Made by a program: the position numbers and the translations under genes
Shown here: one piece after another, positions 1 through 24,946 of the stretch
Layout: the number at the start of each line of letters is the position of its first letter
How positions within the stretch are numbered: the stretch's first letter is position 1
Virus record (IMG/VR): IMGVR_UViG_2721755720_000004
Source: a virus
Taxonomy: Duplodnaviria > Heunggongvirae > Uroviricota > Caudoviricetes
Direction: 5' to 3' (one strand)
DNA length: 48,041 nt
Notes under the pieces: model-generated
Told to the model about the DNA's origin: nothing
The model's database searches: none
Seen by the model: the letters and a program-made list of their open reading frames with translations, nothing else

Positions 1-675
1 TTATTCCTGTGCCCAGCCAACCTTATATGCCAGTATCTCATCCGCACTGGTCAGCTTTTCCAGCTCTTTCTTCATCATGCGCTGGCGAACGTGGATTTCC
101 ATCCCTTTCTGAAACATCGCCTTTTCTGCCGCAGCACTGAGCGCGATCAAAGCCTCCGCTGTCATCGGCACGTCATTATTTTCTGCATCTGTCCAGAAAA
201 ATCCCTCCGGCAGTATTCCCGCTTTTGCTGCTGCCACCGACGGCTCAAGACGAACCTGAGTCACCTTGCCGTAGTCCCACTTCCGTCCATTGTACTCAAA
301 CACATACTCCGCATTTTCCATGGCACTTCGCCAGGCATTTATTTCTGCCCCCTTCTGTTCACGTGCTCTGTCAGCCGTCAGCAGGTCGGTGATTTTTTCC
401 CCGTCAAATCCCCAGCGTCCGCTCAGGTCAATTTTCAGGCTTTCCGGTGCGTCCGGCACTTCAGCCACACTCTGGTTCACCGGCCACAACAACTTAATGT
501 CCTTACCATATCCCGTAATCACACCACGGCTGTCATACACCACCTTCAGCGTGTCTTCCGCAAACCTGGAATGGCATTCATACCAGTCCTGACCATCCTC
601 AGATTTCAGGTATATCGCACCCGCCACATCCGGCTCTGCCGGTGTGTAATACGAAAAATTTCTGACATGCATCAT
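1..675 (-). CDS. tfa: tail fibre assembly protein (Tfa-like chaperone)
   Basis: 224-aa ORF at the 3' end of the tail module, directly after the side tail fibre gene; N-terminus MMHVRNF...YLKSEDGQDWYE resembles enterobacterial prophage tail-fibre assembly proteins; stop TAA is at positions 1-3, so the gene is complete. Confidence 0.7.
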   Translation of the reverse strand: MMHVRNFSYYTPAEPDVAGAIYLKSEDGQDWYECHSRFAEDTLKVVYDSRGVITGYGKDIKLLWPVNQSVAEVPDAPESLKIDLSGRWGFDGEKITDLLTADRAREQKGAEINAWRSAMENAEYVFEYNGRKWDYGKVTQVRLEPSVAAAKAGILPEGFFWTDAENNDVPMTAEALIALSAAAEKAMFQKGMEIHVRQRMMKKELEKLTSADEILAYKVGWAQE

Positions 676-896
676 TTTCCCGTGCCCTCTTCCGATACCG
701 GCACCCAGACCGGCATTTTTTCCGTACCGACTCCCCGCTTCATGCCCGCCGGTGCAGCATCCGCTGCAAAAACTTTATACACGGCATAGTCCACCTCTAT
801 ACCATCCACAGGCCAGTTTCCGGTAGTCTCGTAAACGGCACGCAGGGAGGCCGGATAAAACATATTCGCGGACGGTGAAAAAATATAACGCTCCAT
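672..896 (-). CDS. hypothetical small protein between side tail fibre and tfa
   Basis: 74-aa ORF; its stop overlaps the tfa start (ATGA-type coupling). No recognisable motif; could be a separate gene or the N-terminal part of a two-part assembly factor. Confidence 0.35.
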   Translation of the reverse strand: MERYIFSPSANMFYPASLRAVYETTGNWPVDGIEVDYAVYKVFAADAAPAGMKRGVGTEKMPVWVPVSEEGTGK

Positions 897-905
897 AATC
901 CCTCC

Positions 906-2312
906 TCAGTATCCGGTCGCTTCCCAGAAAAACTTACCGGAGGTTCCTCTGACAGTCCTCAGTGTCACCGACTGCAATGACGGTGAGGACAGAGTGTATC
1001 CAGGAATTTTCCCGGGCTCCCCCACCGGAGAAACCTGAACATTCAGCACTGCTGAAGGAAAAACCACCGGAAAACGGATGGAGTGCAGTGATAACGCCTG
1101 ACCATCGGATTCACTTATCACAAGCGTACCCCATTGTCGCATCCGTCCGGTAGCCTCATCACGTTCCCAGCCATTGACAGCCAGACTCGCCGTCGTGGGT
1201 TTATTCCTGGTACCGTAATCCACCCGCCAGTGGTATTTCCGGGTATCGCCATAAACCGTACAGGTACAGACCGTGCCATTAATAAACCCCGTTGCACCGT
1301 ATTCACCAATGGTGACCCGTACAATGGCGGCGTCATATGTTCCCATCACTTCAATGGTACAGCCGCCCAGATTGAGTTTCCCCGGTCCGACATCAGTGAT
1401 GGCCTTATTCATCGCCGCTGGCAGTGATGCCTTCATTATCCAGCAGGTATGGTCAAATGCCCCCTGCTCTTTCAGCCAGGCAACAAACTCTTCTGTCGTC
1501 CACTCACCTGCTCCGGTTGAAATGTCACGCCCGTATGCTCTGGGCACACCAAGCTCACGGATGAAAGCTTCCCTGTCTGTAATATCTTCAAGGCTGCCTG
1601 ATTTTCCCTGAGGCCCGGCAGGCCCCTGTGGTCCCGGATCTCCCTTTGGCCCTGGAGGGCTACCCGGATCTCCTTTCTCTCCCTTTTCACCCCGTTCACC
1701 TCTGGGCCCTGTGTCCCCCCTGTCACCTTTTGGTCCCACAGGACCGGCTTTACCCTCAGGTCCTGTGGCTCCGGTATCCCCTTTGGGGCCCGGAACACCC
1801 TGTGCCCCTGTTGCACCACGCTCACCCTGTGGCCCGGTTGCACCTGTCTCACCTTTCGGTCCCTGTACCCCCTGCGGTCCCGGGTCACCTTTATCACCCT
1901 TCGGCCCCCTGGCATTCTCTGCCCGTTTTTTGGCCTCCTCTGCACTGGCTGCGGAGGCTTCAGCACGCTTCAGTATTTCCGCAGCCACCGCTTCCAGCTC
2001 AGCGAGGGCTTTCGGATAATATGGCGCATCCTCAAAGTCCATCAGGAATTTATTCAGTGTTCCCGGTGCAGAGTCCGCCTTCACCAGAATGTCACCGACG
2101 TATGACGGCATACGCCCTTCTGTGTTCAGGGTCACACGGTACAGCCCCGGTTCAACATCCATACTGTAGCTGCCTGTCTCCCCCGGCTGCCCGTATGCCA
2201 CCGTAGTGACAATCACCGTTTCTGTGGTGCGTCGCGCTTTCAGTTCTATTGTGCATCCCGGTACCGGCTTCCCCGCGCCGTCCTTCAGCACACCCGATAT
2301 TCTGACTGCCAT
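906..2312 (-). CDS. stf: side tail fibre protein with collagen-like Gly-X-Y repeat region
   Basis: 468 aa; N-terminus MAVRISGVLKDGAGKPV resembles lambda Stf; long GPKGDKGDPGPQG...-type collagen triplet run; position after J as in lambda. Confidence 0.85.
   Translation of the reverse strand: MAVRISGVLKDGAGKPVPGCTIELKARRTTETVIVTTVAYGQPGETGSYSMDVEPGLYRVTLNTEGRMPSYVGDILVKADSAPGTLNKFLMDFEDAPYYPKALAELEAVAAEILKRAEASAASAEEAKKRAENARGPKGDKGDPGPQGVQGPKGETGATGPQGERGATGAQGVPGPKGDTGATGPEGKAGPVGPKGDRGDTGPRGERGEKGEKGDPGSPPGPKGDPGPQGPAGPQGKSGSLEDITDREAFIRELGVPRAYGRDISTGAGEWTTEEFVAWLKEQGAFDHTCWIMKASLPAAMNKAITDVGPGKLNLGGCTIEVMGTYDAAIVRVTIGEYGATGFINGTVCTCTVYGDTRKYHWRVDYGTRNKPTTASLAVNGWERDEATGRMRQWGTLVISESDGQALSLHSIRFPVVFPSAVLNVQVSPVGEPGKIPGYTLSSPSLQSVTLRTVRGTSGKFFWEATGY
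1617..1910 (-). repeat. collagen-like Gly-X-Y triplet repeat tract inside stf
   Basis: About 30 consecutive G-X-Y triplets (GPKGDKGDPGPQGVQGPKGETGATGPQGERG...) readable from the translation; the coding DNA is a degenerate 9-bp periodic repeat. Confidence 0.85.
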
Positions 2313-2324
2313 AGATTTTCCCCA

Positions 2325-2360
2325 TAAAAAAACCGCAGTGCCGGTTTCCCGGTCTGCGGT
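2325..2360 (-). terminator. putative intrinsic terminator just upstream of the stf ribosome-binding site
   Basis: On the minus strand a GC-rich hairpin (ACCGCAGACCGGG...CCGGCACTGCGGT) is followed by TTTTTTT; on the plus strand this reads aaaaaaaccgcagtgccggtttcccggtctgcggt. Confidence 0.4.
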
Positions 2361-2688
2361 AAAAATCGTGGTTTACAGGATTAAAAAGGTGCTATCCGGA
2401 ACCGGAATTCACACAGTGAACTGTGGGTGATCCAGATAATGAGCACTACCGTGATACAAATCACGGTGGTTTTTAACGGTTTTTGCGACACAGAACTTGC
2501 TCCTTATTACGGAGAGGCGCTAACCTGCCACTTGCTTAAGGTAGACGGTTCAGGGCCTCGGGTTAACATTGAAGTTGACTCGGGGCCTTTTCACATCAGG
2601 CCTTCAGGTGTTCCCTCCGGCCATCAGCCAAAGGCACCCGCGCATACTGTACGGTTTTATATCCTTCCGGCAATTCCGGTCATCATGT

Positions 2689-5600
2689 TCACGAAATACT
2701 GATACCCGCCGTGGATTTTTTCATGACCACAACCAGTAAATCACTGATGTATGTTGTCGGCGTCCAGTGGTTCACCCCGTTCGACCACACATTAAACGTC
2801 AGGGTCACATGACCCCGTCCTGCCGGCATATCAATGACGGACGAAAACACCCGGGTGACATCCGTTGCCGGCTCATGAAAAATTACCCTTCCGTTCATCT
2901 GCACCTGTAACTGACACGTGGAATACCATGTTGAAGTGTGATCTTTGCTGGACTGGTGCTCATGTCTCGCCCCCCGGAACAGTACCGGTGGAATGATGAT
3001 CTGCCTGTCGAAGCCCTGGTCATCATAAACGGTGACCGTTATCGTACCACTGGCATAACTGTTATTCCGTGGGAAAGCTTTCCCCACTGTTTTGACCAGG
3101 TCACCTTCAATCTGGTTTGCAGACAGTTTTCCCAGAATCCGGCAGTTCTGGTTAATGGTCACATTATTGAGCGTGCCAGAGTTCGCATTAATATTTCCGC
3201 TGATATCCGCATTACGGGCCGTCAGCCTGCCTTCCGGCGTCAGGGAGAACACAGGGGGATTGCCGGACGAGGTGATGCTCACCGCAAACAACCGCTTCAG
3301 GAATACGTCGTTCATGAACAACTGATTCCCCTGCGCCACAAACAGCGGCGTGGTGTTGCCGTTCTCCGGGTTAATCATCGCGATACGGTCAGCCTGCAGC
3401 AGAATATTGCTCAGGGTCTGGCCATCAACATCCTCAATCCCCGCACCAATACCAGCAACATACGGAATACCGTTTTTCGTTTTCTGCACCTTCAGCATGT
3501 ACAGTGCGCTCAGGCTGTCATCCGTCTCCTTCTGCACACGCTGTATCTGCTGTATGGTGACACTCTGGTCTTCCAGGATTTTATTGACCGTCTGTGTGAT
3601 TTCATTGCGGGTTTCTGTGATGGTGGTCTTCATCTCCGCCATCTCATCATCAAGCTGACTGTTATCAATCAGCTCCCACATCCCCTGTGCCAGATGTGTC
3701 TTCCCGATTTCTCCTTTGAAAAAGTCCAGATAACCTTCCGCATCATTGCTCGCCCGTCCGGTTGCTTCAACAAAAACGGATTTACCCACCAGGTTGACGC
3801 TGCGCACATAAAACCAGAAATCTGTCCCTGGCTTAATGTGCGAGCCGGAGACGCTCCACTGGCTGCCGGTCCCCAGATAACGGGCGGACGTTTCCACCTG
3901 TGCCGTGTTCGTGATGCGTTTTTCTGAGAACCAGAATTCAAACTGTACCGTCGGATCATACAACGCAAGACGCGGCACTGCTGTTATCTGGAAATAGCCG
4001 GGGGTCAGTTCAATGGTGGCAGGTGCTGCCGGTGCGTTAATCCGGAACGTGGTGGTGGCAGGCTCCCCCAGCTGGCCATAGCTGTTTATCGCCCTGACCG
4101 TCAGGGTGTATTCCCCCAGCGGCAGGCCACTGAAACGGTGCTCCGTGTCGGCGGTGATGGCGCTGGTCACCAGACGGCTGTTTTCACCGGTTCCGCTGGT
4201 CAGGCGCAGACTGAAGCGCACGCCCTTCACCACCCTCGGCGTGTCCCATTTCGCCGCCGCCAGATACTGACCGTCAGACGCGCTTACCTCCACCGTGAGA
4301 TGCTGTACTGCCGGAGGTGTGACACTGTTCAGCGAACCGGACAACGGCTCAAAGGTGGCACCATTATCCACGATGGCCTCCTTCTCCGGCACATGCTGCA
4401 CCGCCGTGATGGCGAAGGTACCGTCCGCATTTTCGCGGATCGCCACACACCGAAACAGACGGCGGCGCAGTCCCGGCAATGCCAGCCCCCAGATACTGTG
4501 TTCCACCACCCCGTCAGGCAGTGTACTGATCTGTATCCTGTCAGGTGATGGCTGCCCGGTAACATCCACACTCACCGGTTTACCGCTGCCGTTTATCAGA
4601 TTCACCGTGGATGTGCCCTTTTCCGGGAGGGTGACTTCACGGTCAAGCGTCAGGGTCCGGCTGGCGTTGTCGACGGACAGGATCCGCCCGCCGATCACGG
4701 TACCGGCATACGCATTATCACTGATTTCAATGATATCGCCCGGCGTGTGACGCAGTCCCTCCGCCCCCACACTGAAATCCACTGTCTGTGTTTCCAGCAG
4801 TTCGGTCTTTATCACCCACAGGCCTGCCCGGTGAGCCTGACCACGGCTGGTACAGCCGAACGCATCCATCTTCAGAAGATTGCGTCCGTAGCGCAGTATG
4901 GCATCCGGATCCTCCACCAGTTCAGTCGATGTCTGCCAGCCATTCTGCGGATCGGTGTAATTCACCTCAACTGCCGTGTGTCTGTCCTTGAGGGCACTGA
5001 AGCTGTAATGAAAACTTACCCCATCCTCCCCTGTCACCACATTACCGGCGGTATAAGTCCAGACAACATCCGATGGTCTGTCCTGAACAAACGTCAGCGT
5101 CTGTCCGTTCCATACCGGCATACAGCGCATTGCAGAGCAGAAATCCCCCAGCACGTCCCACGCCTTACGCTGTTGTGACAGGTACGCATTAAAGGTCATA
5201 CGGGGTTCTGTACCACCAAAGCCATCCGGAACCGGCTGGTCACAGTACTGTCCGAGGGCATAGAGCGCCCACTTGTCCACATCCGCGGCCCCGAGGCGCT
5301 TTCCCATACCATAACGTGGATGCGTCAGCATATCCCACAGACACCAGGCCGGGTTGTTGCTGTATGCCGGTTTCAGAGTCCCGTCCCAGATACCGCTGTA
5401 TGTACGTTTTTCCGGGTCATAGTTTGACGGCACCTGGATGATGCGCCCGCGGATATGGTAGTTCACCGCCATCTGCTGCCCACCGAACTGCTCCGCATCC
5501 ACCTGCAGCCCCACTATGGCTGTGTTCGGGTAGCTCTGTTTCACATCGATGATTTCGGTGTATGACGACCAGAGCGTTCTGTTCTGCAGCTGGTCCGTGG

Positions 5601-6165
5601 TACTGTCCGCCGTCTCCCTGACTATCCGGATATTAAAGGGACGCTCAGGGAGGTTACCGATTATCACCGACGTCAGGTACTGCGAGGTGGTCTTACCGTT
5701 AATGGTGATATCCTTCTCTGTCACCCAGTGCCCGCTACGCTCAAGCTGAATCAGCAACCGGACAGAAGAGGGATTACGGTCACCCTTTGAGGTCGTCTCC
5801 ACCAGTGACTGAACCCCGAAGGTGACCCGCAGACGGTCAATGTTCGCTGACGTGATGGTGCGCGTCACTGGCTTCGCCTTCGTCACCTCCACGCCCAGTG
5901 CGGTTTCCGCACCAGAAGACTCAAAGCCTTCCGGCGGCGTCTGCTCCTGCTCCCCTGCACGCCAGACGGCTGTCACGCCATGTATCACGGGATTACCGTC
6001 CATATCCGTCAGCGGGGTTTTGTTCACCAGAATACTCTGCAGTCCCTTCACCGGACCTTCAACCGGCCCTTCACCAATGGCATCAATCACGCTCATCATC
6101 TGCGTGGACTTCAGGTTATCCTTCGCCTCACGCGGTGTGTGCCCCTTGCCGCCCCCCTTACCCAT
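2689..6165 (-). CDS. J: tail tip attachment / host specificity protein J
   Basis: 1158 aa; N-terminus [22 protein letters not shown] and overall length match lambda J; located after I as in lambda. Confidence 0.95.
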
Positions 6166-6406
6166 TGCGTCACCCTTTAGTGTCTGATATCAGTATCTGT
6201 TTATGTACAAAAACAACAGGCACCCCAGAGGGTGCCTGTCTGCTGAGTGAATAAAATTCCTGAATTTCTTCACACTTCCGGCAATTACCTGTAGCCACCA
6301 TAATTACGCTGCGTTACTGTTTTCCTGCCTGAAAAATAACTCCATAACGTTAATCTTCATCGTTTATTTCCCGCAGCTCCGCTAACTCTGCGGGATTTTT
6401 TTATTT

Positions 6407-7045
6407 TCATCCCCGCCCGATAACCACCACCTTACCGTCTCCGCCTTCATCACGGGTGCTGATGTCCTGGGATATCCGTCGCGACCCCACAAGCATCTCA
6501 CCATAAGGCACCGGCATCGGGTTACCCTGGGCAATCATGTTGTCCAGTGAGGAGAAATACGTGTTCCGTTTACCATTATCTGTTGTCGTGGCAGACGGTG
6601 TTTTCGCCCTGGGGGTGAGCATCTGCGTGATACCCCCCACCATCATGGCCACCCCAAGATTACCGATGACAGCACCAATACCGGTCCAGCTGAATACATA
6701 TCCCACAACAGCCAGAACAGCACCGGCCACCACCTGAAGAACACCGCCGTTTTTTGCCCCCTCCGTCCGGGGCACCAGATGGATAACATTCCCGTCATTC
6801 AACGGCTCACATACTCTGGAATGAAGCTCCTGTTCAGATACATCCCTGCCCGCAATGCGTAACTGATACCATCCCTCATACAGTTTCTGCCGGAATCCCG
6901 GCACCTGCAGCGACAGGGCACGGATGGCCTCCGCAGCCGTGTTCACATACAGGCTGATGCGGCGACCAAATCGTTGTAAATCCCCGTGAAGGCAGATACG
7001 GACCAGTGGCGGTGACGCCAGACAGAATGCGTTCGTCGTTGCCAT
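6407..7045 (-). CDS. I: tail assembly protein I
   Basis: 212 aa; motifs RICLHGDLQRFGRRI and TTDNGKRNTYFSSLDNM are typical of lambda I; overlaps the 3' end of K as in lambda. Confidence 0.9.
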   Translation of the reverse strand: MATTNAFCLASPPLVRICLHGDLQRFGRRISLYVNTAAEAIRALSLQVPGFRQKLYEGWYQLRIAGRDVSEQELHSRVCEPLNDGNVIHLVPRTEGAKNGGVLQVVAGAVLAVVGYVFSWTGIGAVIGNLGVAMMVGGITQMLTPRAKTPSATTTDNGKRNTYFSSLDNMIAQGNPMPVPYGEMLVGSRRISQDISTRDEGGDGKVVVIGRG

Positions 7046-7695
7046 TTTTCAGAATACCTCTCCCGTTTACTCAGTTGTTCAGGTATATGGTGAAGCAGTT
7101 CACCATTGCCACAGTAAATGGCAGCATGATTGGGTACCGATGAACCAAAACAGCACAGCAGAATGTCTCCCGCCTGTGCACCGGACAGGGATACCCGGTA
7201 AAAGCCGTTTTCCGCCAGATTGTCCAGGTACAGGTTCTGACCGTTGCGCCACCAGTCATCCTCACGCGCAAAATCCGGCAGCGTTATCCCCGCCAGATGG
7301 TATGCATCCCGGAACAGGGTGTAACAGTCCGTCACACCGTGTTCAAAACGCCGTCCGGTGAGGTGCGGAACGCAGCGGAAATGATGAATTTCGCCCCGGC
7401 AGACCAGCCACCAGGGAATTGCACTTTTTACCTGCAGCCGTCGGTCCGCCTCGCTCAGCCAGGGCAGACCGCCGGGATGACTGTGGACCAGCGCCACAAT
7501 CTCCCCCTGCATATCCGCCCGCAACCAGTCTTCCGGCGCAATACGAAAATACGCCTCCGGCTCTGCAGAAATATTCACGCACGGCTGATACTGCTCCCCC
7601 TCCGGCGTTCTCACCACGAAGCCGCACGACTCCGCTGGCGCACACCGCCGTGCATGCGCCAGAATGGCTGATTCAGTCTGTTCCATGATAATCAC
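6943..7695 (-). CDS. K: tail assembly protein K (NlpC/P60 and JAB-type domains)
   Basis: Motifs ESCGFVV and HSHPGG...LSEADR match lambda K; the true start may be the internal ATG at 7686 (MEQTES...). Confidence 0.9.
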   Translation of the reverse strand: MIIMEQTESAILAHARRCAPAESCGFVVRTPEGEQYQPCVNISAEPEAYFRIAPEDWLRADMQGEIVALVHSHPGGLPWLSEADRRLQVKSAIPWWLVCRGEIHHFRCVPHLTGRRFEHGVTDCYTLFRDAYHLAGITLPDFAREDDWWRNGQNLYLDNLAENGFYRVSLSGAQAGDILLCCFGSSVPNHAAIYCGNGELLHHIPEQLSKRERYSEKWQRRTHSVWRHRHWSVSAFTGIYNDLVAASACM

Positions 7696-8390
7696 TGTGA
7701 AAGTTTATTAATGGAAAGGAAAAAACCGCCGTTTGCCACATTCCCGCGCATTTCACAACCGCGCAGGCACTTGCTGCATTTGTCTTTCCTGATATCCGTG
7801 GTGGGTTTGTCGAACTCGTCAGCCACTGCCGGGCCGTTATACCCACATTCCTCTCCACGGTAATCCCACGGACAGGTATTGGCCAGCATGATACGACCGG
7901 GAAACAGCGCCCCGTCCGTCTCTGCCGGTGTCGCCAGGATAAAGGTCGCCTTTTCGCAGGTCAGCGCTGACAACTGCTCCACCACCCAGCGATCTGTCAA
8001 CTCCTGCTCAGGGTCTGCCTCCGGGTTTCCCGCAACAAAATTCACGGCATCGAGAAAACGGGCGTACACCCGGCGGCGAACCACCGTGCCCCCGACCAGA
8101 CTCTGCAAATCCTCCGCCATGCCGGTGACCAGTCCGAACAGATTCGAGACAATCAGCGACGGTCGCGCACTGCTGCCCTTGCCGTTCATCTCAAAGCCGC
8201 TGCCCTCTATCGGGTATGCCTGATACTGACGCCCCTGCCAGGTGACAGGCTCGCCCTTTTCATTGATTTCACCGCAGAAAAAATAGCGTTCGCCTCCCTG
8301 CGCCTTCAGGTCGATTTCCCACAGCACCACGCGGGCGGACTGCGCTGATTTTACTGCCTCGTTCAGACTCTCCTCATGAATATCCTGCAT
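7692..8390 (-). CDS. L: minor tail protein L
   Basis: Start set at the internal MQDIHEESL to match lambda L length; conserved RYFFC, KGEPVTWQGRQYQ and C-terminal Cys cluster. Confidence 0.9.
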   Translation of the reverse strand: MQDIHEESLNEAVKSAQSARVVLWEIDLKAQGGERYFFCGEINEKGEPVTWQGRQYQAYPIEGSGFEMNGKGSSARPSLIVSNLFGLVTGMAEDLQSLVGGTVVRRRVYARFLDAVNFVAGNPEADPEQELTDRWVVEQLSALTCEKATFILATPAETDGALFPGRIMLANTCPWDYRGEECGYNGPAVADEFDKPTTDIRKDKCSKCLRGCEMRGNVANGGFFLSINKLSQ

Positions 8391-8595
8391 ATGTATCCGC
8401 CCATAAAAAAGGGGCGCAGACGCGCCCCGAACAATACGTTCAGTTTTAAATAAAACCAATAAAGGTAATAACAGAAAATTAAATCAGCATATGCATGGCA
8501 ATTGCTGATGCAGTGACCAATGAAAACTATGTTTTCATTGATACAGACCGCCTGTAAGGGCAGACGGTCTGTATTTATTAACTTATCAGCAATAA

Positions 8596-9759
8596 TCAGA
8601 ACTGATAAGTCATCCCAACAGCAACGATATTATCTGTCGCAATACCGGCTTTCTGGGTAAATTCGCTTTCATCAATCAGGTTAATTTTATAATCAACATA
8701 AGTGGACATATTTTTGTTAAAGTAATAAGTCGCACCGACATCAATATATTTAACCAGATCCTGGTCGCCATGGTTCACACCACCAACCATAACATCCTGT
8801 CCGCGGGACTGCAGATAAGCCAGAGATGGACGCAGGCCAAAATCGAACTGATACTGAGCAACCATTTCAAGGTTTTGTGCTTTATCCGCAACCCCGGTAT
8901 CACCAAAAGTGGTCATATTCTGGGTTTCGGAATAAATTGCAGCCAGATACAGATTGTTTGCATCATATTTAAGGCCAGTCCCCCACATCTCAGCATACTT
9001 ACCTTTTGCAACGCTGCCGGAATCAACGGACACTTCTTTTTCCGTCACATCCCCCGTTAAAGGATCTTTGACTTCAATAGTTTTGCTACCATTCAGGCCA
9101 TTAACCTGCTTACCTGTACGATCTGACTTAGTATACGCTGCCACAAAACCAAAACCATCAAACTCATAGCTGGCAGAGAAACCATATCCATCACCATTAG
9201 ACTTCTGGAGGTCATCTCGCTCATTTTTTCCCTGATACTGGGCTGCAAAGTTAAGACCATCCACCAGTCCGAAGAAATCTGTATTGCGGTAAGTCAGCAC
9301 TCCGGAAGTACGAGCAGTCATGAAGTTATCAGTCTGCGTCCAGCCATCGCCACCAAATTCTGGCAGAACGTCTGTATACGAACCGACATCATAAGCGATA
9401 CCATAATTACGCCCGTAATCAATGCTACCTAAATCAGCGAATTTCAAACCGGCAAATGCCAGACGGGTTTTATTGCCTGCCGTCCCTTCAGACTCGGCCT
9501 TATTACCTGAAAACTGATATTCCCAGTGACCAAAACCTGTCAGTTGATCATTGATCTGAGTCTCACCTTTAAAACCAAGACGTGCATAGGTCTTATCGCC
9601 ATCATCACCTTTATCGTCTGAGAAGTAATGGAGAGCAGTTACACGACCATAAAGATCCAGCTTATTACCATCTTTATTATAAACTTCTGCTGCCTGAGCC
9701 CCCGCAGCAAACATCACTGCCACTGCAACAGCAGAAAGTGCCACTGTCATTTTTTTCAT
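8596..9759 (-). CDS. general-diffusion porin (OmpC/NmpC/Lc-like) carried as cargo inside the tail gene cluster
   Basis: 387 aa with Sec signal peptide [23 protein letters not shown]; then [17 protein letters not shown]...HYFSD and C-terminal ...YVDYKINL...GMTYQF ending in Phe, hallmarks of enterobacterial 16-strand porins; AT-rich flanks. Confidence 0.9.
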
Positions 9760-9992
9760 TTATTTAGTCCTTTTTAATCTTTTAACCGAACTGTTCACAA
9801 CAGAAACTGTCATAAACATTATTTAAAATATTTAAAATAGCTGCCCATTCAATATTCAAAATGTAAGAGAATGTAAAAAAAAGATCCAGGCAACACTTTA
9901 TAATAAGAAATGAGACAAATAAATATATAAAATAGCAATTTATTATTTTAATTATTTTCACTACTTTTATTTATTTTATTATTTTATCCACT

Positions 9993-10322
9993 TCAGCTTA
10001 CTACCTGTTTAAACTCAGCACTAAATTCCACACGCAGCATATTTATCCTGGAGGTCCATTTAGCACACGTCACCTTTATCTGCCTGTACGTATAAGGCGG
10101 CGTCCACAGAAACGCCTTCCAACCCCCGTGCTCTGCCAGAAAATCTTCCAGCCGTCTGGCATCATCACGGGACACAGACAGCGAAACGTTGTAGATTTTC
10201 AGATCCGCATTCAGCCCGGCAGGCGCACGCTGGGAATACCCGTCCCCAAAACGCACTTCCATAACCGACGGCTCAGAGGTCACTTCCATTCCCGGCTTCA
10301 CTTTCCAGCGAAATGTTTTCAA
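9993..10322 (-). CDS. M: minor tail protein M
   Basis: 109 aa, MKTFRWKVKPGM...WTPPYTYRQIKVTCAKW resembles lambda M; immediately follows H. Confidence 0.9.
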   Translation of the reverse strand: MKTFRWKVKPGMEVTSEPSVMEVRFGDGYSQRAPAGLNADLKIYNVSLSVSRDDARRLEDFLAEHGGWKAFLWTPPYTYRQIKVTCAKWTSRINMLRVEFSAEFKQVVS

Positions 10323-12901
10323 CGCCCACCTCCGGAGAACATACCGCCATCACGCATCTGTGCCTGGATCTCATCACGGGCTCCCTTACGGGCCATGTCA
10401 TAAACCAGCACCAGTGCCTGCGGACCGATACTGCCATTCGTGGCATCATTCTGAATCACCACATTGTTGTTCTGATTAAAACTGATACCATCTGCCCGCC
10501 GCATCTGAGCCTGACTTCCGGAACCACCCACATAACCGCCATCCGCATACCCCCGCATCAGGCGGTACAGGTTGCCGACACCAATCCGGCTGGTTGCCTC
10601 CTTCGTGAACACAAACTCACCACGGTGAACAATCCCCGCAGGCTCATATTTTCCGCCAGTGCCGGTGAATCCACCGGTCGCAAAATGAAAGTTTGCTGCC
10701 GCAGCCTGAATGGCTGTCCCCGTGGAAGCTGACGCGCCAGCACCACCAATGGCTCCCCCGATGGCGCTGCCGATACTCCCGACAATCCCCACCATGGCCT
10801 GTTTAATCAGGATTTCCGTCATCATGGACAGCACCGAACGGGTGAAACTGCGCCAGTTCTGTTCACTGCCGGTCAGCATTGCCGCCATATTCTGTGCAAT
10901 ACCATCAAAGGTCTGCGTTGCAGCACTTTTAACCTGCGAAAAACTGTCCGTCGCACTTTCAACCCACTCACCCCAGCCAGACTTAAACCCGGCCAGCCAG
11001 TCACTGCGCAGCATATCTTCATCCGCCCATGTCTGCTTCAGTGCCCCGGTGACCTGTGCCAGCGCCTGCGGATTATCGCGGTACACGTCACGAAGACGCT
11101 GCTCTTCAGACTCACGCTGCGCCTGACGATCGGTGAGACCGCGGGCTTTTGCGCTGATGGCCGCCTGCTTCGCGCTCTGCTGCTCTTCAAACCGCGCTGC
11201 CTGCTGTGCCAGCTCATTCAGCCGTTTCTGGTATTCAACCTTGTCGCCCAGGTCAGCCAGCTGGCGTTTGTACTCCAGCGTCTCTTTCTCATGGGCCAGC
11301 AGGGATTTTTCCTGCTCAGATAACTGCCGTTTCGTGGCGGCCTCTTTCAGGACCGCATACTGATTTTCCGCTTTCCATAAATCCCGGCGCTGCTGGCTGA
11401 TTTTCTCATTCGTACCACTGTGTTTTTCCAGCGTCCGGAGCTCGGTATCAAGCGCCAGCAGGGCAGCATGCGCCTGGTCTTCCTGACGCTCACCGGCTGA
11501 CACTTTTACACCTGACGACTTCGGCTTTTTCAGCGTCGCTTCATAATCCTTTTTCGCAGCCGCCATCAGCGTGTTGTAATCTGCCTGCAGGATTTTCCCA
11601 TCTTTCAGTGCCTTCTTCAGTTCCTTCTGGCGGGCGGTATATTTATCCAGCGGCGTCTGCAGGCGTTCATATGCCTTCTGCACCTCTTCGGTGTACTTCA
11701 GCCGTGAGGCCTCTGATTCAGCCCGATCCCGTGCCGCCATTTCGCTGGCTTTTTCCAGGTCTGCCTGCAGTGTCGCCGCTGAAAGACCGAGGCGGGCGTT
11801 TTCGCGGTCGTCCCATGCGCCGCGCAGATTAGAAAGATACGCTGACGTTTTTCCGCGCCGGTTACTGCGACTCTGATACCATTGCCATTTTTTATCCGCC
11901 TCATCGAATGCCTGCTGTGCCTTATTCAGCATTTCTGCAGATGACTCAGGACGCCCGATATCCAGCACTGCATCCCACATGGATTTAAACGCACTGCCGA
12001 CTTTATCCGCCCAGGTCTCCAGCGTTCCCATATTCGCTTTCAGGCGGCGGGTCTGCTCATCAAACCCTTTTGTGGCGGCCTCGTTTGCGGCCTGCAATGC
12101 CCCGGCCTCATCACCGGAACGCTGCAGTTGCGCAACATACGCAATCTGCTCTGCCGTCACGTTACGGAACTGGCGCGCCATCGCCATCAGCCCCGACGTC
12201 GGGTCGGTGGTCAGTTTTCCGAAAGCCTCTGCAATCTTGTCCACTTCCACACCGGATGCAGAAGCAAAACGCGCCACACTCTGATTAATGGCATCAAACT
12301 GTTCACCACCACGCACACCGGCATTCACCAGTGCTGCCAGTGACTCACTCGCCTGATTAAACGTCAGCCCTGCTGCCTGTCCTGCTCTGGAGAGAGTCAG
12401 CATGCGATCTGCGGTCAGCCCGGACTGATTACCGGAAAGAACCAGGGTTTTATTAAACGCTGAAAGCGTGGAGTCCCCCTGGTACCAGGCATACGCCAGC
12501 GCCCCGGTTGCTGCAACGAGTGATGTGATCCCGACAGCAGGCAGCGTGACGGCACCAGCAAGGCTCCGGAACATGGGGATCAGCCCACCGAAGGAGTCCT
12601 TCACCTGTCCGCCCTGCTGCAGCAGGATCAACCACGGACTCTGACCACCGGCAAGCTGCGTGGCGATATCCGTGAACTGTGCGGGCAGGGTACGCATGGC
12701 TGCTTTATACTGCCCGACGGAAATCCCGGCTTTTTGTGCGGCCAGCGCCTGACGGTTCAGACTCTGCTCAACGGCACCGGCGGTTTTTCTGGCGTCGGTA
12801 TCCAGTCCTGAAAAATGACGCCTTACCCGGCTCATCTGCTCATCGAAACGGGCCGCATCCAGACTCAGGTCAATAACAAGATCACCAACCGGCTGGGACA
12901 T
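10319..12901 (-). CDS. H: tail tape measure protein H
   Basis: 860 aa; coiled-coil-rich centre and Gly-rich C-terminal region; N-terminus MSQPVGDLVIDLSLDAARFDEQ as in lambda H; position after G/GT. Confidence 0.95.
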   Translation of the reverse strand: MSQPVGDLVIDLSLDAARFDEQMSRVRRHFSGLDTDARKTAGAVEQSLNRQALAAQKAGISVGQYKAAMRTLPAQFTDIATQLAGGQSPWLILLQQGGQVKDSFGGLIPMFRSLAGAVTLPAVGITSLVAATGALAYAWYQGDSTLSAFNKTLVLSGNQSGLTADRMLTLSRAGQAAGLTFNQASESLAALVNAGVRGGEQFDAINQSVARFASASGVEVDKIAEAFGKLTTDPTSGLMAMARQFRNVTAEQIAYVAQLQRSGDEAGALQAANEAATKGFDEQTRRLKANMGTLETWADKVGSAFKSMWDAVLDIGRPESSAEMLNKAQQAFDEADKKWQWYQSRSNRRGKTSAYLSNLRGAWDDRENARLGLSAATLQADLEKASEMAARDRAESEASRLKYTEEVQKAYERLQTPLDKYTARQKELKKALKDGKILQADYNTLMAAAKKDYEATLKKPKSSGVKVSAGERQEDQAHAALLALDTELRTLEKHSGTNEKISQQRRDLWKAENQYAVLKEAATKRQLSEQEKSLLAHEKETLEYKRQLADLGDKVEYQKRLNELAQQAARFEEQQSAKQAAISAKARGLTDRQAQRESEEQRLRDVYRDNPQALAQVTGALKQTWADEDMLRSDWLAGFKSGWGEWVESATDSFSQVKSAATQTFDGIAQNMAAMLTGSEQNWRSFTRSVLSMMTEILIKQAMVGIVGSIGSAIGGAIGGAGASASTGTAIQAAAANFHFATGGFTGTGGKYEPAGIVHRGEFVFTKEATSRIGVGNLYRLMRGYADGGYVGGSGSQAQMRRADGISFNQNNNVVIQNDATNGSIGPQALVLVYDMARKGARDEIQAQMRDGGMFSGGGR

Positions 12902-13753
12902 ATCTCACACCTCCTGAAATCCCCGCTGAAGCCATCATTAATGCAACATCATCCTCGCTGACATCCACCACATCTGCAGAAGGTGAAATATCGCCCCCTC
13001 CCTCCCCACCGAACCGGACGCCTCCGGCAAGTCCTGCCGCTTTCTGCATCAGCATGTCTTCCTCATCCGGCATCTCCGTCTGCTCTTCCTCTCGCCGGGG
13101 AGCCAGCAGACTGAAATCCGAGGGATGCATATCCGGATCGCAAAAAAACAGGCTGAGTACGGCGTACATCAGCCCGGAAAAATGCATATCCAGTTGGGTA
13201 TCCTGAAAATAATGCGTGCGGTAAAAATGTCGCCAGTCGGCATATTCGGTGGATGTCATCCCGGCAAGCATGGCGCGCCAGTCAGGCCTCCCCATCTCAC
13301 GCGCCAGTCTGAGGGCAAAATTCAGCTCGCCGTCGAAAACTTTCCCGCAGAAAAATCATCATCAGTAAGCACGTTATTTTTCGCCACTTCGGTGATATCA
13401 GTATCCGTATGAACAGGCTCGCTCATCCCGGACAGATGCAACACCACATCTTCCGCCCGGGCAATGGCATCGGCAGGCCAGGTGGTGAGCACTTCCTGCT
13501 CGATCTGCATCACGGCCTCATTCATGGACGGCATCTGCGTTTTCTGTGGATGGTTATGCCACAGGGACATCGCCACCAGAAACGCGCCGGTTCTGACGAG
13601 ATCTTCCACGCTCACCTGCAGGTTACCGCTGGCTTCAGCCTGTTCTGCACGCCGTTTCAGCAGGGCAAGATGCTCAATACGCTGCAGCGCAGACAGCTCA
13701 GAAAGCGTGACGGACACACCGTTATATTCAAATTGTTCTGTTTTCAGAAACAT
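12882..13753 (-). CDS. GT: tail assembly chaperone G-T fusion made by programmed -1 ribosomal frameshift
   Basis: The -1 frame downstream of G is open to 12882 (T segment); the slippery site GGGAAAG sits at the G/T junction exactly as in lambda. Fusion coordinates are approximate. Confidence 0.7.
13322..13753 (-). CDS. G: tail assembly chaperone G
   Basis: 143 aa, MFLKTEQFEYNGVSVTLSELSALQRIEH resembles lambda G; the slippery heptamer lies at its 3' end. Confidence 0.9.
   Translation of the reverse strand: MFLKTEQFEYNGVSVTLSELSALQRIEHLALLKRRAEQAEASGNLQVSVEDLVRTGAFLVAMSLWHNHPQKTQMPSMNEAVMQIEQEVLTTWPADAIARAEDVVLHLSGMSEPVHTDTDITEVAKNNVLTDDDFSAGKFSTAS
13340..13346 (-). promoter_or_regulatory. 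-1 frameshift slippery heptamer G GGA AAG
   Basis: Minus-strand sequence CTGCGGGAAAGTTTTCG; G reads ...GCG GGA AAG TTT... (AGKF) and a -1 slip enters the T frame. Confidence 0.75.
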
Positions 13754-13772
13754 GCTTTATCACTCCCTCAGC

Positions 13773-14522
13773 TTAACCCGCTGCGCCATCCGTGACGGTA
13801 ATTTCCGCCACTGCCGCAAACTCACCATTGCCGGTGACAACAGGGATCTGCGCTTTACCCGCCGCAACACCTTTCACCGTGATTGTGTTCCCCTTCACGG
13901 TAATGGTGGCGAAATTCTGATTTGCCGACGTGGCACGGAAGGTTTTATCCGTCACCCCTTCCGGCTGAACGGCCACGGTCAGGGTGATACTCTGACCTTT
14001 TGCCACATTGCCCGTTGGTGGCGTCACAGTAATCCCCGTGACCGGTGTGATGTCACCCCGATCCTCCGCCAGCGAAGGACGACCGATATTGGTGATCTTC
14101 ACGGTACGGGTGATCACCTCTTTGGCGGTCACCGCTTTACCAATGGCACTCACCCAGCCACGGAACACATCCACCGTGCCATTCGGGAAGCGGATTTTGT
14201 AAGCCCGGGTCTCGCTGCTGTCAAACCAGGCTATCAAATCACGCTGTCCTTGCTCACCCGGTTTCCAGGCCAGCGTAAAACTGGTGTCACCCGCGGATTT
14301 CTGTCCCTGCCCGGTGGATACCCAGTCGGCATCCTCATCATCCAGATAGTTATCGTCGTAGGATTCCGCCGTCATCTCGCCGGGGGTCAGATCCTTTATT
14401 TTTGCCAGACGCGTCCACTCATCATCTGACAACGGGTTTGCATAAGCATCACCCTTGCCGGTGTAAACCCAGAGCGTGGTGCCGGAACCTTTTACCGGCG
14501 CCAGGGGATTTGGTGTTGCCAT
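13773..14522 (-). CDS. V: major tail protein V (with C-terminal Ig-like domain)
   Basis: 249 aa; GTTLWVY...[24 protein letters not shown] and [16 protein letters not shown] match lambda V. Confidence 0.95.
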
Positions 14523-14529
14523 ATCGTCC

Positions 14530-14925
14530 TCACATTTCGTAGGTAATGGAATAAGTCAGATCAGCAGAACTCCACAATGCCATATCGTCATCACGACGAT
14601 ACTCATAGCCCTGCGTAACCATCGTGGTAATCATGCCTGCCAGTGCAGGGATCGCCGCCATCGCCGGGTAAATCCGGCTTTCCATCCACTGATCAAGCTC
14701 TGAATCCGGTACCTGTGCCGGTAAAAACACCTCAATATGCAGTGTGGCCCGCCAGGTATCTGCATCCAGCTCTTCACCGGTATACTCTGCATCCGTCAGA
14801 TAAACCGCGACCGCCGGAAAATCCTCTTCGTCAAAAACAACGGGGCGACCATCAAACAGCGTCGCCCCGTGTTCATGCTGCTCGAGTGCATCCAGCACTG
14901 CGGCACGAATATCAGTATGTTTCAT
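14530..14925 (-). CDS. U: tail terminator protein U
   Basis: 131 aa, [15 protein letters not shown]...LTYSITYEM resembles lambda U. Confidence 0.9.
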
Positions 14926-15500
14926 CGTTTTATCGCAATCCTCAGTTGTTGTTTCAGCGCGTATGACAGTTCTTCTGGCAGGCGTTCACGCCGGATACGT
15001 TCAATATTCTGTTTAAATGCTGTGGTCAGCGGCACCGCCATCGGGATTTTTACCACATCAATGGGGTAACGGTTTTTCCCGGCCACACGCTGCATGACAT
15101 GCCACCGGCCATTTTTCAGTTGCTGAATAAACGCGCCGGGAATGCGACGGTTACCCACCACAAGCACACTGCCGCCACCTTTCAGGGATGAACGCTGCCC
15201 CTTTTTACGTCGCCTGCGTCGGGACAGGACAACCCGCGCATTACCCAGCCTGATTACGGGCAAATCCCCCCGGTTAACTTTGATTCTGACCTGAGGATTT
15301 TTAACCGTGGCCCTTTTCAGCCTGGCCCTTCCCTTTACCAGTTTCCGGCGTACCTTTGTCTCACGGGCAACCTGTGACGCCGACTGATTTATTGCCGTTG
15401 TGGCCACACTGTTAATGGCCATTGCTGAAGCAGCAGGAATGGCGTTTTTACGAAACCGGCTCAGATTGTCAATAGCCTGATCAAGCCCTTTTATCACCAT
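14922..15500 (-). CDS. Z: tail completion protein Z
   Basis: 192 aa with the basic RRRRRKKGQRSSLKGGG segment typical of lambda Z. Confidence 0.9.
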   Translation of the reverse strand: MVIKGLDQAIDNLSRFRKNAIPAASAMAINSVATTAINQSASQVARETKVRRKLVKGRARLKRATVKNPQVRIKVNRGDLPVIRLGNARVVLSRRRRRKKGQRSSLKGGGSVLVVGNRRIPGAFIQQLKNGRWHVMQRVAGKNRYPIDVVKIPMAVPLTTAFKQNIERIRRERLPEELSYALKQQLRIAIKR

Positions 15501-24403: not shown

Positions 24404-24946
24404 ATGAACAGATACTCTAAACTTCAAATTCAATTACATTGGCTGACTCTCGTATTAATAGCTATAGCCTGTGCTGCAATGGAACTTCGAGGTTTGTTTC
24501 CTAAAGGGTCTTCCTCCTATTTGCTTATGAGAGAAACACATTACAATGCTGGTATATTTATTCTTCTACTGATGATAATAAGAGTAATTATCAATAATAA
24601 ATATATAACACCAGCTATTACGCCGCCCCCACCTGCATGGCAAATGATATCAGCCAAATTCATGCAAACCCTGTTATACATATCTTTTTTGGTGTTACCA
24701 GTATCAGGACTTGCAATCATGGTTTTTGGAGGTAAAGCATGGAGCCTTCTGGGGATTGATATTCCCACTTTCGCTAACACCGACGGAGAAGTAAAATCCG
24801 TAGCCAAAACTATTCATGAATCACTTGCAAATATTGGTTATTTATTAATCACACTCCATGCTGGCGCTGCATTAATTCATCATTATATTCAGAAGGACAA
24901 TACACTTGTCAGAATGCTCCCTGAGCACCAGCATGATAAAAAGTGA
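24404..24946 (+). CDS. cytochrome b561 family protein (CybB-like di-haem membrane protein)
   Basis: 180 aa; MNRYSKLQIQLHWLTLVLIA...MELRG and C-terminal HAGAALIHHYIQKDNTLVRMLP closely resemble E. coli CybB; four predicted transmembrane helices with conserved His; AT-rich. Confidence 0.85.
   Translation: MNRYSKLQIQLHWLTLVLIAIACAAMELRGLFPKGSSSYLLMRETHYNAGIFILLLMIIRVIINNKYITPAITPPPPAWQMISAKFMQTLLYISFLVLPVSGLAIMVFGGKAWSLLGIDIPTFANTDGEVKSVAKTIHESLANIGYLLITLHAGAALIHHYIQKDNTLVRMLPEHQHDKK

Follow-up and report, generated by a model that had tools for sequence, protein, structure and literature searches.

A candidate porin-swap cassette between tail genes M and L of lambdoid prophages in Escherichia coli

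The stretch of DNA examined here, the 48,041 nucleotides of the Caudoviricetes record IMGVR_UViG_2721755720_000004 in IMG/VR (hereafter the window), is the prophage adjoining potB in Escherichia coli strain M1 (NZ_CP010180.1, 100% identity), and it carries a complete porin gene between its tail genes M and L. Our analyses indicate that positions 8391-9992 of the window are very probably a moron, that is, a unit of promoter, gene and terminator placed between two conserved phage genes. M and L are adjacent in relatives, the G + C content of the inserted DNA is foreign, and the sequence includes a terminator of its own. As we read it, this cassette would comprise, in order, an AT-rich region, a promoter-like region, the porin gene, a structured 3' untranslated region (3'UTR) and a ribosome-binding site for L. 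It is likely that the porin, the promoter-proximal region and the 3'UTR constitute one module, homologous to that of the phage porins Lc (PA-2) and NmpC (DLP12) with the regulatory RNA IpeX, and located here at a second lambdoid site.

As an explanation of the whole, we lean towards a lysogenic-conversion cassette that brings about a "porin swap" and is a relative of the Lc/NmpC-IpeX module; the swap is a proposal drawn from the analogy with IpeX and from an analysis of a seed in the 3'UTR. For the cassette we infer promoter activity, expression in the lysogen, processing of a small RNA (sRNA), repression of ompC and ompF and an exclusion phenotype, which might be connected as follows. In the lysogen, transcription would begin at the cassette promoter and stop at 8405-8428, before L, so that the phage porin would be made without tail proteins. 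The 3'UTR, probably processed as described for IpeX, would pair through a seed like those of MicC and MicF with the initiation regions of ompC and ompF and lower the expression of both genes. A phage porin whose surface loops differ would then take the place of part of the host porins, which would alter the receptor profile of the lysogen, with porin-dependent phages and colicins excluded, as well as its permeability. During lytic growth, Q-antiterminated RNA polymerase would pass the terminator, and L-K-I-J would still be expressed. The Q-modified late transcription complex of lambda ignores terminators, and a strong terminator in front of L-K-I-J may be tolerated for this reason.

Limits of the inserted DNA and the porin gene

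The tail genes lie on the minus strand in the order H (10319-12901), M, an open reading frame (ORF) of 387 amino acids, L, K, I and J (Table 1), and the RefSeq annotation of NZ_CP010180.1 has the same M, porin and L genes. A first-pass annotation, made from the sequence of the window alone, had described a complete porin gene with a signal peptide and a C-terminal phenylalanine at this place, and its gene coordinates all hold against Pfam, NCBIfam and RefSeq. When an artificial junction of the M end and the L start was used as a query against complete E. coli genomes, an empty site was found in a second prophage of strain M1 itself (L017), in which the M-L junction is contiguous (94.7% identity in one piece) and the stop codon of M overlaps the start codon of L in TGATG. 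Positions 6338-9134 of this sister prophage correspond to window 12788-9993 (91.4%) and its positions 9134-15117 to window 8390-2391 (97.9%); the intervening 1602 bp have no counterpart there. M and L also abut in lambda and 434. Because of the empty site in the sister prophage, the cassette can be defined as the block lying exactly between the M stop and the L ATG, and its limits, 8391 and 9992, are demonstrated. The earlier annotation had the insert begin at 8460, which falls inside the 3'UTR, and it overlooked the IpeX-like character of this region (8391-8595). When the cassette ends were searched for a target-site duplication or terminal repeats, only a 5-nt GGATA was found in common, which was judged to be due to chance.

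Against a G + C content of 0.57 in L, K and H, the porin gene has 0.44, the segment 8391-8595 has 0.39 and the segment 9760-9992 has 0.21, so the very AT-rich flank reported at the outset is real. The view of the gene as a discrete, acquired cargo also stands, with the empty site, the foreign composition, a conserved promoter-like region and the terminator in agreement.

Two further observations concern the junction. Over L-K-I-J, the side-fibre and the DUF4376 region, the DNA of the sister prophage (NZ_CP010180.1 810361-828643, reverse complement) agrees with that of window 12-8390 at 97.9-98.7%, and the K proteins share one accession; the sister prophage is without the porin cassette, its head module differs, and the annotation gives its J as frameshifted. 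The M1 chromosome contains in this way two almost identical tail-tip blocks of 8 kb, between which recombination or inversion could readily take place. In a contig of Logan ERR12716494 (L011 5663-5800), a pseudo-copy of about 100 nt of the 5' end of L stands between the M stop and the cassette; it reads TGATGCAGGATATTCAT, then an in-frame TAA, and the real L comes after the cassette. This pseudo-copy has the look of a scar left by the original insertion or by unequal recombination.

The porin ORF matches the Pfam family Porin_1 (PF00267) over profile positions 1-337 of 337 (E=3.8e-144; 480.7 bits, cutoff 23.7), and solved OmpC, OmpF and PhoE chains match it at E=1e-131 to 1e-110. The solved mature chains begin aligning at residue 24 (AEVYNK), and residues 1-23 are therefore assigned to the signal peptide. 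The L3 motif PEFGGD is identical to that of OmpC, the protein ends in ...TYQF, and R60, R99 and R150, which align with the pore arginines of OmpC, are invariant in 49 homologues. By family membership, the protein is thus a general-diffusion porin. Sequence homology likewise points to a porin barrel fold; the AlphaFold2 model built from the 49-sequence alignment (mean predicted local distance difference test score 58.7, with the N-terminal 105 residues below 50) was too poor for use.

The label "OmpC-like" in the first-pass annotation was right for the family, as the NCBIfam subfamily "porin OmpC" is passed marginally (508.1 bits versus a cutoff of 484), and wrong for a specific likeness to OmpC, as its identity with K-12 OmpC is 64%, compared with 73% for Lc (68-73% over Lc and NmpC). 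In a neighbour-joining tree, the M-L porins form one monophyletic clade separate from the Lc/NmpC clade; these two clades and the OmpD-like porins make up a supergroup, from which K-12 OmpC, OmpN and OmpF stand apart. Two assignments were rejected. The first, a host OmpC orthologue, would fit the marginal NCBIfam pass, but the protein has the low identity just given, is prophage-borne and falls outside the K-12 OmpC branch. Membership of the Lc/NmpC clade was dismissed on the separate clade, the 68-73% identity and the bimodal identities in IMG/VR described below.

Compared with solved OmpC, loop L4 is short, and residues ~220-250, in L5, have no counterpart. Among 15 distinct proteins of the clade, L5 ranges from nothing to a 26-residue insert, with a mean pairwise identity of 0.34 versus 0.87 for the rest of the mature protein, and smaller dips occur at positions 281-290, 321-330 and 361-370. 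On account of this difference in identity, the barrel and pore are conserved and the exposed surface is variable. The ORF is intact in all 29 clade loci that were translated, which encode these 15 proteins. It is hardly credible, therefore, that the gene has no current function and is carried along silently or in decay, for instance as foreign DNA silenced by H-NS. The upstream G + C content of 0.21 is typical of H-NS targets, and the nmpC gene of K-12 is quiescent and interrupted by IS5, but the intact frames, the retention of barrel and pore with variation concentrated in surface loops, and the non-coding covariation presented in the next section are all contrary to decay.

The region upstream of the porin was aligned across six lineages, and the DNA upstream of PA-2 lc was compared as well. 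The first ~110 nt after M are lineage-specific and AT-rich, and the proximal ~130 nt hold invariant blocks, including TTGAA and AAATATTTT. Their conservation points to a candidate promoter of the form TTGAAY-N16-18-TATTTT. Another pair of hexamers, TGGGCA/AATAAT, had been proposed by a promoter scan; it is not conserved across lineages and was replaced by the conserved ones. The tandem box upstream of the hexamers has 12 nt (TTACATTTTGAA) in common with TTTACATTTTGAAACATCTA upstream of K-12 ompC, a stretch that we take to be OmpR site C1. The pattern of the box occurs once in the 48-kb window, and it resembles an OmpR-binding site, for which it is a candidate only. Common to the cassette and the DNA upstream of PA-2 lc are TTACAT.TTG, GTGACA, AATAGTTCA and AAAGG at the ribosome-binding site. 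A 59-amino-acid ORF in the AT-rich spacer (9782-9961) was treated as spurious because it has no Pfam match and its segment is non-conserved.

A structured RNA in the 3'UTR and its predicted targets

The 205 nt between the porin stop and L fold with a minimum free energy (MFE) of -75.2 kcal/mol (z=-7.3 versus shuffles). In an alignment of 13 distinct versions from different M-L lineages, four helices are kept, namely stem-loops SL1, SL2 and SL3 and the terminator: 97.8% of the cells are paired, and compensatory changes occur in 11 pairs. None of 500 shuffles reaches this level, and slid partners pair at 37-46%. This covariation argues for purifying selection on RNA structure, and by such comparison the 3'UTR is a conserved structured RNA. 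The terminator ends 14 nt upstream of the L ATG, and the GGGYGGA motif in between is probably a new ribosome-binding site for L, replacing the translational coupling of M and L at empty sites. An Rfam scan of 8200-10200 at E values up to 10 returned chance-level matches only, with no MicC, MicF or other sRNA family; the IpeX region of DLP12 has no match in Rfam either, and Rfam holds no family for this RNA.

A covariance model (R1) was built from the 13 M-L 3'UTRs only. On the PA-2 (lc) and DLP12 (nmpC) regions it scores 34.9 bits (E ~1e-5) over its full length, starting from the porin stop codon, and it finds 13 of 13 NmpC-type IMG/VR loci (L058-L070; 28-38 bits, E ~1e-6 to 3e-4). The 3' regions of porins with 73%, 70% and 61% identity score 95, 32 and 35 bits, respectively. 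After more than 20 chromosomal OmpC/OmpD-like porin loci (Citrobacter, Enterobacter, Salmonella, Klebsiella, Serratia and others) R1 gives no match at E values up to 1; it gives none at ompF, and no significant one at ompC/micF or ompN/micC. In a blastn comparison (word size 7) of the cassette with the K-12 ompC locus and PA-2 lc, coding similarity only was found, plus one 12-mer of the ompC promoter; the non-coding homology to lc/nmpC is therefore seen solely through motif comparison and the covariance model. The regions after lc and nmpC are identical to each other, consisting of three hairpins, CCUUCUGUUAUAUAUUACCCUUUAUUUUU and then directly a GGGGCG/CGCCCC terminator. The layout of the cassette is IpeX-like too, with 8391-8595 following directly on the porin stop, on the same strand, and ending in an intrinsic terminator. 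In published work, IpeX is made as part of the porin transcript (PMC12197685), and it reduces OmpC and OmpF (PMC8065619, PMC12197685).

Between SL3 and the terminator, the 3'UTR contains a conserved seed whose 10-nt core, UUAUUACCUU, is invariant in 13 of 13 distinct 3'UTRs and is the longest invariant block outside the helices. The seed is mostly unpaired in the MFE fold, save for one weak 3-bp stem, and neighbouring unpaired positions vary. It has GUUAU..CCUUUAUUG in common with the 5' start of MicC, which reads GUUAUAUGCCUUUAUUGUCAC, and UUAUUACC in common with MicF, which contains UUUAUUUAUUACCGUCAUU. MicF and MicC are each encoded beside a porin gene and repress other porins (PMC5745476). 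For a 27-nt seed, the predicted duplex with ompC has -20.7 kcal/mol and lies at -37..-8, the region that MicC uses; that with ompF has -19.6 kcal/mol and lies at -23..-3, over the Shine-Dalgarno sequence, as with MicF. The cognate MicC and MicF duplexes are stronger, at -26.5 and -27.4 kcal/mol. Four of 1000 composition-matched shuffles reach the ompC value, five the ompF value and none both, and equal or better pairing is found in 0.23% (ompC) and 0.38% (ompF) of 5546 genomic windows of 80 nt. Among 87 true translation-initiation regions, ompC ranks first, ompF third (tied with the unrelated region of pepT, L001_9510), the phage porin 26th and ompA 29th. The variant seeds of other lineages are still predicted to pair with both genes over the Shine-Dalgarno and start regions (-13.5 to -21.1 kcal/mol). 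Of 5426 E. coli genomes, 5360 have the region targeted in ompC at 99% identity or more. On these predictions, repression of host porins in trans by the 3'UTR is possible, if not quite probable.

Several points weigh against the porin swap and its parts. The seed is AU-rich and anti-Shine-Dalgarno-like, a composition prone to pair with many ribosome-binding sites, and its flanks differ between lineages. The pairing had been noticed before it was tested, and the background of 87 initiation regions and ~110 kb is less than a whole genome. The E-values of R1 for the IpeX regions are modest and roughly calibrated, and the model aligns SL1, SL2 and the terminator, while the IpeX seed is not at the same model positions. 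In the scan against promoter consensus sequences, promoter-like sites were no more frequent than in shuffles. Lc was reportedly made in ompB (ompR) mutants according to the older PA-2 literature, and dependence on OmpR may therefore not hold. Self-exclusion is speculative because the comparison of J gives no receptor: its C-terminus is 43-45% identical to both lambda J and 434 J, which we take to use LamB and OmpC, respectively, and 84-88% identical to the J of other cassette lineages, and the cassette-free sister prophage shares the tail-tip DNA (97.9% nucleotide identity from L to J). The idea that the phage replaces its own receptor was dropped accordingly.

The composition and the variable flanks of the seed, the tie of pepT with ompF and the failure of the Rfam MicC and MicF models to match would all be expected if the 3'UTR had no role in trans. 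The cassette would then make porin in lysogens, its hairpins would do no more than protect the mRNA from 3' exonucleases and end transcription ahead of L, and the complementarity to ompC and ompF would be a by-product of AU-rich, anti-Shine-Dalgarno-like composition or of shared ancestry; hairpins and a terminator suffice to explain the covariation. We consider this rather unlikely. It does not account for a 10-nt core that is invariant in a largely unpaired stretch with varying neighbours, for a pairing with both ompC and ompF that at most 0.4% of background windows equal, or for the retained pairing of the lineage variants; in addition, the homologous region after nmpC is IpeX, a regulator described experimentally in the papers cited above.

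Table 1. Features at the M-L junction of the window, from upstream to downstream in the direction of transcription
Feature	Position	Strand	Basis
Tail gene M, minor tail protein, 109 aa	9993-10322	-	PF05939 E=1e-37; RefSeq; empty-site alignment ends 9993
M stop TGA, upstream edge of insertion	9993-9995	-	
AT-rich lineage-specific spacer	9878-9992	-	GC 0.21 over 9760-9992; no conservation upstream of TTTACA box
Tandem TTTACA/CTTACA box TTTACATTCTCTTACATTTTGAATA, OmpR-site-like	9853-9877	-	Consensus TTTACATTTTGTTACAT in all lineages
Promoter-like hexamers TTGAAT (9847-9852) and TATTTT (9825-9830), 16-nt spacer	9825-9852	-	Conservation
Probable 5'UTR with conserved blocks TGACA and AACAGTTC/AATAGTTCA	9760-9824	-	
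Porin ribosome-binding site AAGGA	within 9767-9773	-	
Porin gene, 387 aa	8596-9759	-	Pfam, NCBIfam; E=1.8e-131 to solved OmpC (3UPG)
Signal peptide codons of porin	9691-9759	-	
Surface loop L5 codons, aa 216-250, hypervariable in length and sequence	9010-9114	-	Absent from solved OmpC chains
Stem-loop SL1, 14 bp	8541-8574	-	5 pairs with compensatory changes
Stem-loop SL2, 10 bp	8518-8540	-	4 pairs with compensatory changes
Stem-loop SL3, 7 bp, variable apical insert	8483-8509	-	2 pairs with compensatory changes
Conserved seed UUCUGUUAUUACCUUUAUUGG, core UUAUUACCUU at 8462-8471	8456-8476	-	Between SL3 and terminator
Intrinsic terminator GGGGCGC-GUCU-GCGCCCC-UUUUUU, 7-bp stem and T6	8405-8428	-	Terminator scan; all lineages
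Shine-Dalgarno-like GGGCGGA for L	8396-8402	-	GGGYGGA in most lineages, ~6 nt before L ATG
L ATG, downstream edge of insertion	8388-8390	-	
Tail gene L	7692-8390	-	PF05100 and TIGR01600; empty-site alignment

Distribution of the cassette

The cassette, over at least 80% of its length, was found in 84 of 5426 complete E. coli genomes (~1.5%). Sixteen of them match at 97% or more and carry the same prophage, mostly in isolates from mice or other rodents; the remaining 68 match at 85-88%, many of them Shiga toxin-producing E. coli (STEC). Among the 16 near-identical carriers (H1-H16), those from rodents include M1, M3, 3-72, 8178, DEF2, DEF10, FEA3, PG20180057 and A39 (Zyzomys), and the 85-88% variants are found mostly in bovine and human STEC. 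No complete E. coli genome has more than two places with the cassette. One strain can hold several copies, because IMG/VR UViG 643348545 yields three carrier contigs (contigs 9, 13 and 8; L046, L050 and L051), each with M, porin and L.

In every lineage inspected, the porin lies between a PF05939 M and a PF05100 L, and the heads and tape-measure proteins differ. Five lineages have the M-porin-L order in varied backgrounds: Citrobacter farmeri P0011, ST130 with an HK97-like head and tape measure, P0008 with a lambda-like tail, P0013, and P0016. The identities in IMG/VR are bimodal, with 31 loci at 84-100%, a gap, and then loci at 68% or less. L follows the porin in 31 of the 31 former loci and M precedes it in 30, the exception being at a contig end. 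Among the 49 NmpC-type loci at 68% or less, none has M or L within 3 kb; the first-pass annotation was correct in placing Lc and NmpC elsewhere, and they sit by Q and the lysis genes.

Porins with 73% identity or less occupy other contexts, by a CdiI gene (73%), by IS66 (70%) and by a Q antiterminator gene (61%). The first of these (L014 3805-5121, GCA_050583865.1) lies in a non-phage context downstream of the CdiI immunity gene, and since its 3'UTR is homologous to that of the cassette (95 bits, E=1e-19), a unit of porin and 3'UTR exists outside the M-L and Q-lysis sites. The supergroup also occurs on mobile elements of a third kind, the P1/P7-like phage-plasmids, which carry an nmpC-type porin (76% nucleotide identity over part of the gene in E. 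coli plasmid matches H79-H90; 66.7% amino acid identity in phage P7).

These data show that the M-L porin insertion is a recurrent, old and widely shared state and not a private event. Of the earlier reading, the unusual location was confirmed, and a peculiarity to this prophage was not, given the E. coli genomes, the 31 IMG/VR contigs and C. farmeri. It had held that an insertion common to the whole phage lineage would tell against it, and the distribution observed comes close to that. Lambdoid tail operons in general are without the cassette. Remodelling of the outer membrane and exclusion of superinfecting phages, as suggested in the first-pass annotation, would be possible consequences of the proposed swap. 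In a collection of isolated phages nothing was closer than 68.5%, and those matches were NmpC/Lc/OmpD-type genes. A search for a donor species gave no species-representative genome with a porin above 69% identity. No prior description of a porin between tail genes was found in the searchable literature, whose coverage leaves subscription papers largely outside.

A degraded prophage (L020, NZ_CP116169.1 4213374-4219958) has a frameshifted L, tape-measure fragments only and IS66 elements, and it keeps an intact 373-amino-acid porin and a full 3'UTR (217 bits with R1). The survival of the porin in this remnant suggests selection for the cassette that is independent of the phage, through a benefit to the host. 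It also bears on the possibility of a lytic role, in which the porin would come mainly from the Q-dependent late transcript and would, for example, change envelope permeability late in infection or keep progeny from adsorbing to lysing cells. The gene is co-oriented with the tail genes inside the late operon and must therefore be transcribed late, but a gene expressed only late would need neither the conserved promoter-like region nor the strong terminator just before L, an intact porin beside destroyed L and tape-measure genes argues for host benefit, and the related NmpC of prophage Perceval is expressed in uninduced lysogens at 10-fold above background (PMC9928086). A lytic function is thus very improbable, and a function of the porin in the lysogen is preferred.

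The window has other cargo. A gene annotated as a toxin of the Hok/Gef family (2381-2464, minus strand) lies between J and the side tail fibre gene, where lambda and 434 have lom or an Ail-like gene. A gene annotated as cytochrome b-like (24404-24946, plus strand), with small neighbouring ORFs, lies between the terminase and lysis genes on the opposite strand and is probably another cargo island of this prophage.

Significance and relation to known systems

Phage porin morons are a known kind of element. To these the cassette adds a further position in the genome, a loop defined as hypervariable, and an IpeX-like RNA that is supported by covariation and contains an invariant seed resembling those of MicC and MicF. 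Small hydrophilic antibiotics enter the cell mainly through porins, which are also receptors for many phages and colicins and major surface antigens; a mobile porin cassette with a variable loop, possibly lowering OmpC and OmpF, would alter those traits upon lysogenisation, and its carriers among complete E. coli genomes include many STEC and rodent-gut isolates. IpeX, which is little studied and known from one locus, gains a family of 13 diverged 3'UTRs, with a structure and a candidate seed, and its disputed mechanism becomes directly testable thereby. In addition, a large, terminator-bearing cargo is tolerated between coupled tail-tip genes, presumably by means of Q antitermination.

We tentatively suggest, as a proposal more doubtful than likely, a porin-swap module with two independent sites, Q-lysis and M-L, that combines a porin with a fast-diversifying L5 and a 3'UTR sRNA that has a hybrid MicC/MicF-like seed and silences both major host porins. 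If this is true, IpeX would belong to a larger family of regulators in the 3'UTRs of phage porins, a family supported by covariation, and lysogens would actively give up their main porins for phage reception and antibiotic entry in favour of one chosen by the phage.

The closest known systems are Lc of PA-2 and NmpC of DLP12, which are likewise phage-borne general porins of the same supergroup (68-73% amino acid identity). In their 3' regions, too, three hairpins precede a single-stranded motif, CUGUUAU..UACC.UUUAUU, and the terminator is of the form GGGGCG/CGCCCC. The locations differ: the cassette has M and L on its two sides, whereas lc and nmpC are placed between Q and the lysis genes, and lc, nmpC and a relative adjoin Rz, quuD/essD or Q. 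Unlike Lc and NmpC, porins of the M-L clade combine a short L4 with a long, hypervariable L5, and in the cassette the seed and terminator are ~35 nt apart, whereas they abut in IpeX.

In the ompC-micF and ompN-micC pairs, a porin gene is similarly linked to an RNA that targets other porin mRNAs, and the regions predicted to pair are as for MicC and MicF, the ompC 5'UTR and the Shine-Dalgarno and start region of ompF. However, MicF and MicC are separate, divergently transcribed genes, whereas the RNA of the cassette is the 3'UTR of the porin mRNA itself. OmpC, the name given to the gene in RefSeq, belongs to the same Pfam family, and its mature N-terminus, L3 motif and C-terminus are identical or nearly so; it differs in its chromosomal ompC-micF-rcsD locus, the cassette porin being prophage-borne and 64% identical. 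The lom gene of lambda is also an outer-membrane cargo gene in or by the tail genes, co-oriented with the late operon. It sits after J and before the side-tail-fibre genes, whereas the cassette splits two translationally coupled tail-tip genes and, unlike lom, places a strong terminator inside the operon. The cargo differs as well: lom encodes a small 8-strand barrel, and the cassette carries what is by homology a 16-strand trimeric porin together with a structured RNA.

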